From: Candidatus Heimdallarchaeum aukensis
GTDB lineage: Archaea; Asgardarchaeota; Heimdallarchaeia; Heimdallarchaeales; Heimdallarchaeaceae
NCBI GenBank assembly: GCA_021513695.1
Contig: CP084166.1
Coordinates: forward strand, 2,976,001-3,040,000
DNA: 64,000 bases
Reading direction: 5' to 3'
In this document: piece after piece, positions 8,440 through 10,029 of the stretch
How positions within the stretch are numbered: position 1 is the first letter of the stretch
How the letters are laid out: every line of letters begins with the position of its first letter
Translations under genes and position numbers: made by a program
The notes under the pieces: generated by a model
What the model saw: the letters and a program-made list of their open reading frames with translations, nothing else
Databases searched by the model: none
What the model was told of the DNA's origin: nothing

Positions 8440-9009
8440 TTGATTATGTCAGCATTTGGTGTCGTCAAAATTGTACTACTTGGAGACTATGCTGCAGGAA
8501 AAACAACTCTAAAAAGAAGTTTTATGGGTCTTCATTTAGATGAAGTATACTTAAGCACTTTAGGAGTTGATCTAGCTTCTTATCATTTCGTTGATGATAA
8601 CTTTGATTTAAAGTATCAAATATGGGATCTCGGAGGGCAACCAGAATTTAAGACTATACGTGTTCAACAATATAAAGGTACAGAAGGAGGGTTACTTGTT
8701 TTTGATAAAGCAAGAGTTGAGACTTTCGAACATTTATCTGATTGGTTAGAAGAGCTTAGTAGCTCAATCTCTAATCGTGTTCCTATTTTCTTAATAGGTA
8801 ATAAATCAGATCTTCTTTCTCATGAAGAAAATGCTGAAATGGATAGAAAGGCAGAGAAATTTATAGAAGATAATCAAAATACTTACCCCGAGATTGATCT
8901 TAAAGGTTATTTTGCAACATGTGCTTTAACTGGTGAAAACGTTAGAGAAGCTTTTTTAGCTCTTGGTAAAGAAATAATTAAAATAAAGAGCGATAGAATG
9001 CTCATTTAA
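8440..9009 (+). CDS. Rab/Ras-like small GTPase (eukaryote-signature, Asgard-type)
   Basis: G1 GDYAAGKT; switch I YLSTLGVD (Rab TIGVDF-like); G3 WDLGGQ; G4 GNKSD; G5 TCALTGENVREAF (compare Rab ETSAKTGENVEEAF). No C-terminal CAAX/CC prenylation motif. Confidence 0.85.
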   Translation: MIMSAFGVVKIVLLGDYAAGKTTLKRSFMGLHLDEVYLSTLGVDLASYHFVDDNFDLKYQIWDLGGQPEFKTIRVQQYKGTEGGLLVFDKARVETFEHLSDWLEELSSSISNRVPIFLIGNKSDLLSHEENAEMDRKAEKFIEDNQNTYPEIDLKGYFATCALTGENVREAFLALGKEIIKIKSDRMLI

Positions 9010-9102
9010 ATAGTAAGTAATTTTGTTCTTTCTCAATTTGCCATAGAATAGAACACAACATTCTTATTGATAATTTTTTAAAGCCTTATAACATTAAATA
9101 AT

Positions 9103-10029
9103 GTGATAATTATGGCATCTTTCTTGGGACAAATGATTGTTTCTTTATTACCACTACTCATCTTTCTTGGTCTTTATATTGGTTTCTTTATATGGGGAAG
9201 ATTTGCAAATAAAAAAATCAAAGAACAGAGACTTGACGATGTATTAACAGCTTTGGAACTTTACAATGATAATTATGTAAGAAAAGATCCAAATGATAGG
9301 CAAATAGAGTTAAGATTACAGTTGAAAGATGAATTTCAAGTAAAATCTGCTTCAGCTTGGATTATTCTTTTACCTAGAACAAGCTTTCCAACTATGTTTG
9401 TAGACAAACTATTCTTCAAAAACAAAGATTCTTTCGGGTTAGCTGCTAATTTCCATCATAAACCTAGAGTAGTTTTTGAACTTATTCCTTATAAGTTGAA
9501 ATCTGCAATTAGAAGGGATTTTGATTATTTAATTGAACTTGACGATATTAATACAAAGGATGAAGAAATAAACAATAAATTTCTAATTAAAAGTAATAAA
9601 CCTCAGGTAATTGGTCAATTTATACGAAGTAAATCTTTCATGAATATTTTACGCAAATATCATAACGAAATACAATGGCTAAGTGTTCGAACAGATAGTC
9701 CTCATTTTGAAATGAAATTCAATTTTCCCAAGGAAAATATAGATCTATTGCAACTTGTAAAATTCTGTTTTCTTTCGCTTAAATTTTTTGGAAAAGTTAC
9801 AGAATCAACGAAGAATCAACCTATTCCTGTTATTATTCCACCTAAAAAACTTACTGAAAAAGAAAAAGCAAAAAGAGAAAAAGAGAGACAAAAAGAAAAA
9901 GAAAGAATAATTAAGGAACAAAAGAAAAAGCGTGAAAAAGAAAAGAAAGAAATGAAGAAAAAGAAAAATCAAAATCTAAATCAAAATCAAAAGACTAAAA
10001 CTAGTGCAAAAAAGAAAACAAAGAAATAA
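9103..10029 (+). CDS. membrane-anchored hypothetical protein with long Lys/Glu-rich charged C-terminal tail
   Basis: N-terminal TM (LLPLLIFLGLYIGFFIW), central domain with no recognised motifs, C-terminal KEKAKREKERQKEKE…KKKTKK. Purine-rich DNA tract 9840-10025. Co-oriented 94 bp downstream of the GTPase. Confidence 0.55.
   Translation: MIIMASFLGQMIVSLLPLLIFLGLYIGFFIWGRFANKKIKEQRLDDVLTALELYNDNYVRKDPNDRQIELRLQLKDEFQVKSASAWIILLPRTSFPTMFVDKLFFKNKDSFGLAANFHHKPRVVFELIPYKLKSAIRRDFDYLIELDDINTKDEEINNKFLIKSNKPQVIGQFIRSKSFMNILRKYHNEIQWLSVRTDSPHFEMKFNFPKENIDLLQLVKFCFLSLKFFGKVTESTKNQPIPVIIPPKKLTEKEKAKREKERQKEKERIIKEQKKKREKEKKEMKKKKNQNLNQNQKTKTSAKKKTKK

Follow-up and report, generated by a model that had tools for sequence, protein, structure and literature searches.

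What is the membrane protein encoded directly downstream of a Rab-like small GTPase in an Asgard archaeon, and do the two genes work together? The locus lies in Candidatus Heimdallarchaeum aukensis (GenBank assembly GCA_021513695.1, contig CP084166.1, positions 2,976,001 to 3,040,000 of the forward strand), in a 64-kb stretch of ~30% GC that we call the window and whose internal positions serve as coordinates throughout. A first-pass annotation of this DNA had paired the GTPase with the downstream protein as a candidate functional module. We consider it probable that the downstream gene (9112-10029) encodes a Heimdallarchaeaceae homolog of CCDC47, which contacts the ribosome as part of the eukaryotic PAT complex and the multipass translocon at Sec61, that this homolog acts where the ribosome meets SecY, and that the GTPase is an unlinked neighbour. 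By Pfam threshold, predicted fold and architecture, the protein is assigned to the CCDC47 family, minus the lumenal domain. Its action at the archaeal ribosome-SecY junction through a basic helix is argued by analogy, and we give it about an even chance.

The assignment begins with the sequence profile PF07946 (PAT complex subunit CCDC47, formerly DUF1682), which matches the downstream protein at 32.6 bits, above the gathering cut-off of 27.7. The match spans residues 18-307 of the protein and takes in positions 8-314 of the 326 in the profile. This profile contains a transmembrane (TM) helix and a K/E-rich region, hence truncated and shuffled sequences were scored as controls. With the tail deleted, 23.2 bits remain over the TM and globular part, while the tail alone gives no match and the TM joined to the tail, without the central domain, gives no CCDC47 match. 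Shuffling the central 210 residues in three versions abolished the match twice and left 7.4 bits, on the tail only, in the remaining version. The match therefore needs the native central domain, being lost in all three central shuffles and in the TM-plus-tail construct. Sixteen of the 28 members of a broad archaeal alignment match PF07946, including tail-less proteins at 29.7, 29.1 and 27.5 bits. The ~200-residue central domain, initially called unrecognised, hence falls within a catalogued family, and a few close homologs already carry the NCBI name 'DUF1682 domain-containing protein'.

The predicted structure points the same way. An AlphaFold2 (AF2) model of the full-length protein, built from an archaea-only alignment without templates, has a predicted local distance difference test score (pLDDT) of 81.9 and a predicted template-modelling score (pTM) of 0.69; it consists of a helix (residues 2-48), an alpha/beta domain (52-232) and a second helix (249-303). 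The best two Foldseek matches of this model are 7tm3_4 (E 2.5e-9) and 9i78_4 (E 1.9e-7), and a search of the PDB with human CCDC47 confirmed the chains 7tm3_4/7tut, 9i78_4 and 6w6l_7 as CCDC47. In a first structure-comparison table, the CCDC47 chains 7tut_4 and 9i78_4 score 16.7 and 15.0, followed by TtfA (6t84) at 10.6 and YbjN or type III chaperone folds at ~7. In a second table, 7tut_4 scores 14.5 (179 residues, 3.5 Å), 9i78_4 scores 14.4 (185 residues, 3.3 Å), TtfA scores 10.0 (140 residues, 3.9 Å) and everything else reaches at most 6.7. The globular cytosolic domain is thus predicted to adopt the CCDC47 fold. Guanine-nucleotide exchange factor (GEF), GTPase-activating protein (GAP), longin, DENN and roadblock folds were ruled out for this domain by the structure comparison, which returned a CCDC47-like fold instead; all but the last had been put forward at first as candidates for a GTPase regulator. 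A match to an unrelated enzyme family had been named beforehand as a sign against the pairing: the family found is indeed known and unrelated, but CCDC47 is not an enzyme.

Both open reading frames (ORFs) exist as first described, with their likely starts moved inwards. In the ORF list, the GTPase frame spans 8440-9009 (+) from a TTG start (189 aa), and the CCDC47-like frame spans 9103-10029 (+) from a GTG start (308 aa). Because orthologs begin at MS... or MA..., later ATG codons are favoured for both genes: ATG 8446 is the likely start of the GTPase, giving 187 aa, and ATG 9112 that of the CCDC47-like protein, giving 305 aa. The features of the latter are as follows.

9112..10029 (+), coding sequence of the CCDC47-like membrane protein, 305 aa
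9121..9198 (+), N-terminal TM anchor, residues 4-29, followed by the basic juxtamembrane segment GRFANKKIK (from sequence, AF2 and hhalign)
9241..9825 (+), cytosolic alpha/beta globular domain, residues 44-238, with a predicted CCDC47 fold
9838..10026 (+), C-terminal tail rich in K, E and R, residues 243-305, modelled as a single long helix, putative equivalent of the latch helices or coiled coil of CCDC47 (from AF2, charge and conservation)

The single N-terminal TM helix of the first-pass annotation is borne out by the 26-residue hydrophobic stretch FLGQMIVSLLPLLIFLGLYIGFFIWG, which precedes RFANKKIK and falls within the AF2 helix 2-48. Profile alignment with hhalign pairs this segment with the TM of CCDC47 and its GKNKN motif. 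The positive-inside rule suggests an N-out/C-in anchor with the C-terminal part in the cytoplasm. Just ~3 residues stand ahead of the TM helix, which in human CCDC47 begins near residue 135; the window protein has neither the signal peptide of metazoan CCDC47 nor its acidic, Ca-binding N-terminal domain on the lumenal side.

We compared the broad archaeal profile, with gappy columns removed, with an alignment of vertebrate and fungal CCDC47 sequences using hhalign. The two align with a probability of 92.9% (P 3.8e-7) over 206 collinear columns that run from the TM through the globular domain. The native score of 54.4 compares with 10.7-20.9 for fully shuffled or reversed templates, and the globular part alone scores 27.9 (P 0.0026), with 40 shuffles reaching at most 18.8. 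The globular-domain sequence signal is real but weak, and structure is the main evidence for the assignment.

Several observations weigh against a CCDC47 identity and have to be set beside this result. The TM and juxtamembrane segment, which contains the common G-[KR]-x-x-N-K motif, supplies about two thirds of the hhalign score, and templates in which the TM was kept native and the rest shuffled still score 36-48. A narrow archaeal alignment matched vertebrate CCDC47 in the TM and juxtamembrane segment only, with a probability of 5.6-56%. Identity to CCDC47 is ~14% in the structural alignments, and the fold of the archaeal protein is predicted, not solved. CCDC47 was retrieved from the PDB sequences neither by phmmer with the protein nor by hmmsearch with two archaeal profiles, and an archaeal profile searched against 1.84 billion representatives returned 24 short archaeal proteins only and no eukaryotic CCDC47. 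Human and C. thermophilum CCDC47 match one another at merely 4.8e-10, which indicates that rapid divergence is normal in this family. The C-terminal tail adds two further points against the assignment: its likeness to CCDC47 is compositional only, as the 7.4 bits left on the tail of one central-shuffled control illustrate, and the more distant Asgard homologs have short basic tails in place of the long K/E helix, so that a ribosome-docking helix may be lineage-specific or convergent.

Within Heimdallarchaeaceae, the tail is a consistent feature. The window protein carries 63 tail residues (243-305, somewhat fewer than the ~70 first counted), of which 63% are charged, with a net charge of +20; the tails of human and C. 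thermophilum CCDC47 measure 90 aa (53% charged, net +14) and 76 aa (58% charged, net +8). AF2 predicts one helix, 249-303. The tail is kept as a K/E/R-rich predicted helix in 28 homologs, with length and character conserved in Heimdallarchaeaceae, which argues that it is not a chance low-complexity ORF. CCDC47 is a ribosome-binding protein and the partner of Asterix within the PAT complex (PMC9630114; PMC7505659); the helices at its C-terminus dock where the ribosome tunnel opens (PMC12572126). The early suggestion that the tail is a membrane or nucleic-acid interaction module is compatible with such docking, and the likely target, by analogy, would be the ribosome. In the mechanism that we propose, the CCDC47-like protein would sit in the archaeal cytoplasmic membrane beside SecYE-beta and a YidC/Oxa1-type insertase. 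On translating ribosomes, its basic helix would extend to ribosomal RNA and proteins around the tunnel exit in the manner of the CCDC47 latch helices, and the protein would thereby assist or gate membrane-protein insertion.

The family is Asgard-centred in its distribution. A word-indexed search recovered 34 close homologs with at least 61% identity, all from Heimdallarchaeaceae or Heimdallarchaeota metagenome-assembled genomes (MAGs). A further 23 divergent relatives, 159-277 aa long, came from the profile search of the 1.84 billion representatives, among them proteins from Hodarchaeota/Hodarchaeales, Heimdallarchaeota, Jordarchaeaceae (Jordarchaeia), Hermodarchaeota and one Bathyarchaeia MAG. 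These relatives have the TM and globular domain in common with the window protein, and many residues of the globular domain are invariant across homologs. The nearest genome, Ca. Heimdallarchaeum endolithica PR6 (CP084167.1), has an identical gene order, and its membrane protein and GTPase are 96% and 92% identical in amino acid sequence to those of the window, in keeping with the Asgard origin first surmised for this locus.

Two other accounts of the protein itself can be weighed against these data. It could belong to a TtfA/DUF3137-like prokaryotic superfamily of single-pass membrane-anchored accessory factors that partner polytopic membrane proteins and have no ribosome or translocon role; CCDC47 would then be a eukaryotic offshoot, and the tail a convergent disordered or polybasic extension. 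TtfA, whose partner is a lipid transporter and not the ribosome, is reported by Fay and colleagues (2019) to consist of a TM, a globular domain and a disordered tail and to partner MmpL3, a layout that speaks for this account. So do the short basic tails of the distant Asgard homologs and the Bathyarchaeia relative P0053, which passes the DUF3137 cut-off at 31.7 bits and comes near that of PF07946 at 26.8 bits. The window protein itself passes the CCDC47 model and not DUF3137 (PF11335): its central domain matches the latter faintly, at 12.9 bits (E 0.099), below the gathering score of 26.1. The length and helicity of the tail are conserved across Heimdallarchaeaceae, with a CCDC47-like charge, and we judge membership of such a superfamily unlikely. 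Far less credible still, to the point of being negligible, is an artefact in which A-rich low-complexity DNA happens to leave the second ORF, or its K/E tail, open and the Pfam match is compositional. The ~30% GC genome, the A-rich DNA of the tail and the capacity of such a tail to draw a weak match, as in the one shuffle, would allow for this. Both conservation and the shuffle controls contradict it: many globular residues are invariant among the 34 close and 23 distant homologs, AF2 folds the protein confidently, and the Pfam match requires the native central domain. A homolog of CCDC47 remains our preferred identification.

The upstream gene and the spacer add two features.

8446..9009 (+), coding sequence of a Rab-like small GTPase, 187 aa (from Pfam Ras, PDB relatives, G1-G5 and ortholog position in 23 loci)
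9074..9083 (+), TATA-like A/T element TTTTTTAAAG in the spacer, ~37 nt ahead of ATG 9112, a putative promoter for the CCDC47-like gene alone

The GTPase conforms to its initial description. All five G boxes were located: G1, GDYAAGKT (13-20); the T of switch I, YLSTLGVD; G3, DLGGQ (61-65); G4, NKSD (119-122); and G5, TCA (158-160). The protein matches Pfam Ras at 2e-31 and Pfam Arf far more weakly, at 1e-12. Its best solved relative is the Thorarchaeota Rab 7EZB (5.5e-27), followed by Rab2, Rab11 and Rab1, and the top 60 PDB sequence matches are all Rab or Ypt, which upholds a Rab-like rather than an Arf-type assignment. Since its only Cys is C159 and its C-terminus reads ...KIKSDRMLI, there is no C-terminal prenylation motif, as first noted. 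It fits the RabF motifs of Pereira-Leal and Seabra only in part. The GTPase is the sole Ras-like ORF within the window. Asgard small GTPases number 291 in 8 MAGs, or ~36 per genome (PMC8813620), and by sequence this one is an ordinary member of the known Asgard Rab-like expansion.

Does the GTPase work with the protein encoded next to it? The proposal was that an un-lipidated GTPase is recruited or regulated by a membrane partner, whether effector, receptor or GEF, encoded in a co-transcribed pair. Loci from 25 species-level Heimdallarchaeaceae genomes were compared, of which 23 are informative, one is ended by a contig edge and one (L005) is described below. In all 23, the GTPase gene lies directly upstream of the CCDC47-like gene in the same orientation, with a spacer of 53-150 nt, mostly 59-68 nt; in the window, the spacer counts 93 nt in the ORF list (9010-9102), not the 94 bp first given, and 102 nt from ATG 9112. 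Insertions occur on both flanks of the pair and never between its members: ~1 kb separates AdSS from the GTPase in 6 loci, and a phosphoesterase gene separates the CCDC47-like gene from DegV in the window and in L001. Short spacers without T-runs make read-through from the GTPase into the CCDC47-like gene possible. These facts favour a module, but the entire block USP-AdSS-GTPase-CCDC47L-DegV-NnrD is collinear in Heimdallarchaeaceae, and the USP-AdSS junction is just as stable. The spacer itself also speaks against a shared transcript, as a TATA-like octamer stands 36-52 nt upstream of the ATG in 24/24 spacers, and A[AG]G[AT]ATTAAAAT, common to 20/23 relatives, resembles an archaeal transcription factor B recognition element (BRE)/TATA element. 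This would be the CCDC47-like gene's own putative promoter, and each of the two genes probably has its own, a picture at odds with the co-transcription first assumed.

Outside Heimdallarchaeaceae the pairing is not seen in the loci compared. No small GTPase adjoins the CCDC47-like gene in 8 distant loci (L026, L029, L030, L031, L033-L036). The one partial parallel is L033, where a Rab-like GTPase lies two genes upstream on the same strand. As a candidate ortholog of the window GTPase it was rejected, being no closer to it (107.8 bits) than the window GTPase is to the Thorarchaeota Rab (98 bits). With ~36 small GTPases per Asgard genome (PMC8813620), that is ~1% of genes, chance alone should place one of them a few genes away in one of 8 loci. 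In L005 an intact CCDC47-like gene is immediately preceded by a TnpB-like ORF. The central domain has a CCDC47-like fold, not that of a GEF, GAP, longin or DENN protein. An uncharacterised Asgard small-GTPase module is therefore not what these loci suggest: adjacency is limited to Heimdallarchaeaceae, the spacer is promoter-like and the domain CCDC47-like. The adjacency looks like family-level collinearity, with functional coupling not indicated, and we regard a functional module as distinctly improbable.

Other features of these neighbourhoods are recorded here for their own sake. The L033 GTPase (573-1139, +) has DLAGD instead of DxxGQ, with the catalytic Gln replaced, and has in common with the window GTPase a ~10-residue insertion between G4 and G5 relative to Rab1. 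The upstream ORF of L005 (121-1722, +) encodes a 533-aa TnpB/Cas12f-like protein (PF07282, 23.5 bits, below cut-off) ahead of the CCDC47-like gene at 1890-2798; on this short contig the GTPase is not seen and the TnpB-like ORF occupies its usual place, while 18 nt of the usual 5' leader are recognisable, displaced ~95 nt from the ATG. Downstream of the CCDC47-like gene, and facing it, stands NnrD, a gene for NAD(P)HX repair (YjeF_N + Carb_kinase), in the window (12678-14225, -), L026 (7949-9514), L030 (5933-7567) and L034 (4237-5739). This linkage spans four divergent Asgard lineages, deeper than the GTPase linkage and with no functional reason apparent; as a recurrent neighbour, NnrD supports the orthology of the CCDC47-like genes, not the GTPase link. 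The phosphoesterase gene of the window (10156-11613, -), membrane-anchored and of calcineurin-like or purple-acid type, lies between the CCDC47-like gene and DegV there and in H. endolithica (L001); every other relative lacks this insertion. In L036 (Jordarchaeaceae), a gene for a Vps36/GRAM-like N-terminus (PF11605, 26.4 bits) plus a zinc ribbon (2490-3341, +) stands directly upstream of the CCDC47-like gene, and a MIT + PLD-domain gene (7397-7711, -) lies nearby, giving ESCRT-flavoured neighbours. Two unrelated distant loci have a KaiC-like ATPase gene (PF06745) no more than two genes away from the CCDC47-like gene: in L034 (2726-3391, +) it is the immediate upstream neighbour, and in L035 (3683-4372, -) it follows downstream, beyond a 61-aa ORF. 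The window also holds five DegV-family (fatty-acid-binding) paralogs, at 11819-12676, 42316-43188, 46037-46936, 47004-47912 and 48036-48926 (all +), three of them in tandem, which is notable for an archaeon given the Asgard lipid debate. Rfam and tRNA scans of the window returned no matches.

How does a CCDC47-like protein in an archaeon sit with what has been written about the family? CCDC47 is described as an endoplasmic reticulum (ER) protein 'conserved across eukaryotes' (PMC7505659) and as a core element of the multipass translocon and the fungal SND3 translocon (among PMC12572126, PMC7505659 and PMC9630114). In the portions of translocon-evolution discussions available to us, only SecY/Sec61, the Oxa1 family, OST and TRAP are traced to archaea; likewise, in the available portions of papers that contain both CCDC47 and 'archaea', archaea are mentioned for Oxa1, SecY or TRAP. 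No paper linking CCDC47 to archaea, or the PAT complex to Asgard archaea, was found in the searchable literature, searches on CCDC47 with TtfA, DUF1682 and DUF3137 found nothing relevant, and neither CCDC47 nor DUF1682 nor PF07946 appears in the supplements of Eme 2023 and Wu 2022. The protein is apparently an undiscussed archaeal member of a known family, with the DUF1682 tag on some orthologs already assigned automatically; the GTPase itself and the proposed GTPase-partner module are unremarkable.

An Asgard CCDC47 homolog would add another ER biogenesis factor to the archaeal inheritance. A stronger form holds that Asgard archaea have true CCDC47 orthologs and that the Heimdallarchaeaceae form already carries the full ribosome-docking basic helix. 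An accessory factor of PAT or multipass-translocon type at the ribosome-SecY junction would in that case be older than the ER and eukaryogenesis, and a membrane-protein-biogenesis component would join the eukaryotic signature proteins; we regard this stronger form as a tentative possibility, short of even chances. Bolder still would be regulation of such an ortholog by the neighbouring Rab-like GTPase. The lumenal-domain-free protein would offer a minimal version for studying the role of the conserved CCDC47 core where ribosome and translocon meet. For Ca. Heimdallarchaeum, both closed genomes and enrichment cultures are available (PMC8813620), which makes ribosome co-sedimentation and structural tests conceivable. 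Elsewhere in the window, ~35 kb from the CCDC47-like gene, lie a gene for a Get3/ArsA-family ATPase (43982-44959, -; PF02374, 1e-83) and an adjoining, co-oriented gene for a TRAP-beta homolog (45074-45838, -; PF05753, 40.9 bits versus a cut-off of 22.4), both homologs of eukaryotic ER targeting or translocon factors. This organism thus encodes counterparts of further ER biogenesis factors; archaeal TRAP homologs have already been discussed (PMC11186639).

Set against known systems, the GTPase resembles Asgard and eukaryotic Rabs (Thorarchaeota Rab 7EZB; Rab1/2/11) in G1-G5, in the T-L-G-V-D of switch I and in the interswitch W-D-x-x-G-Q, and departs from them in having no C-terminal Cys, TCA instead of SAK at G5 and ~10 added residues between G4 and G5. 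For the membrane protein, the alpha/beta fold of YbjN and type III secretion chaperones is a likeness at the fold level only, as these are soluble single-copy small domains without a TM or charged tail. TtfA (PDB 6T84), the trehalose monomycolate transport factor A of mycobacteria, comes closer, with a lower structural score and a shorter alignment (140-152 residues) than CCDC47. CCDC47 itself (calumin; PDB 6W6L, 7TM3/7TUT, 9I78) is longer, at 455-483 aa versus 305 aa and ~14% identity, and has the signal peptide and acidic Ca-binding lumenal domain that the window protein lacks. It has defined latch helices where the archaeal tail is one unbroken K/E run, and its known partners are Asterix, Sec61 and the ribosome. 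The host of the window protein is a prokaryote without an ER. The two proteins nevertheless have in common a single TM anchor and a basic G-K/R-x-x-N-K motif, together with a cytosolic C-terminal part and a long, charged, net-basic C-terminal helix that are both predicted in the archaeal protein, and the window protein passes the gathering score of the CCDC47 family in Pfam.

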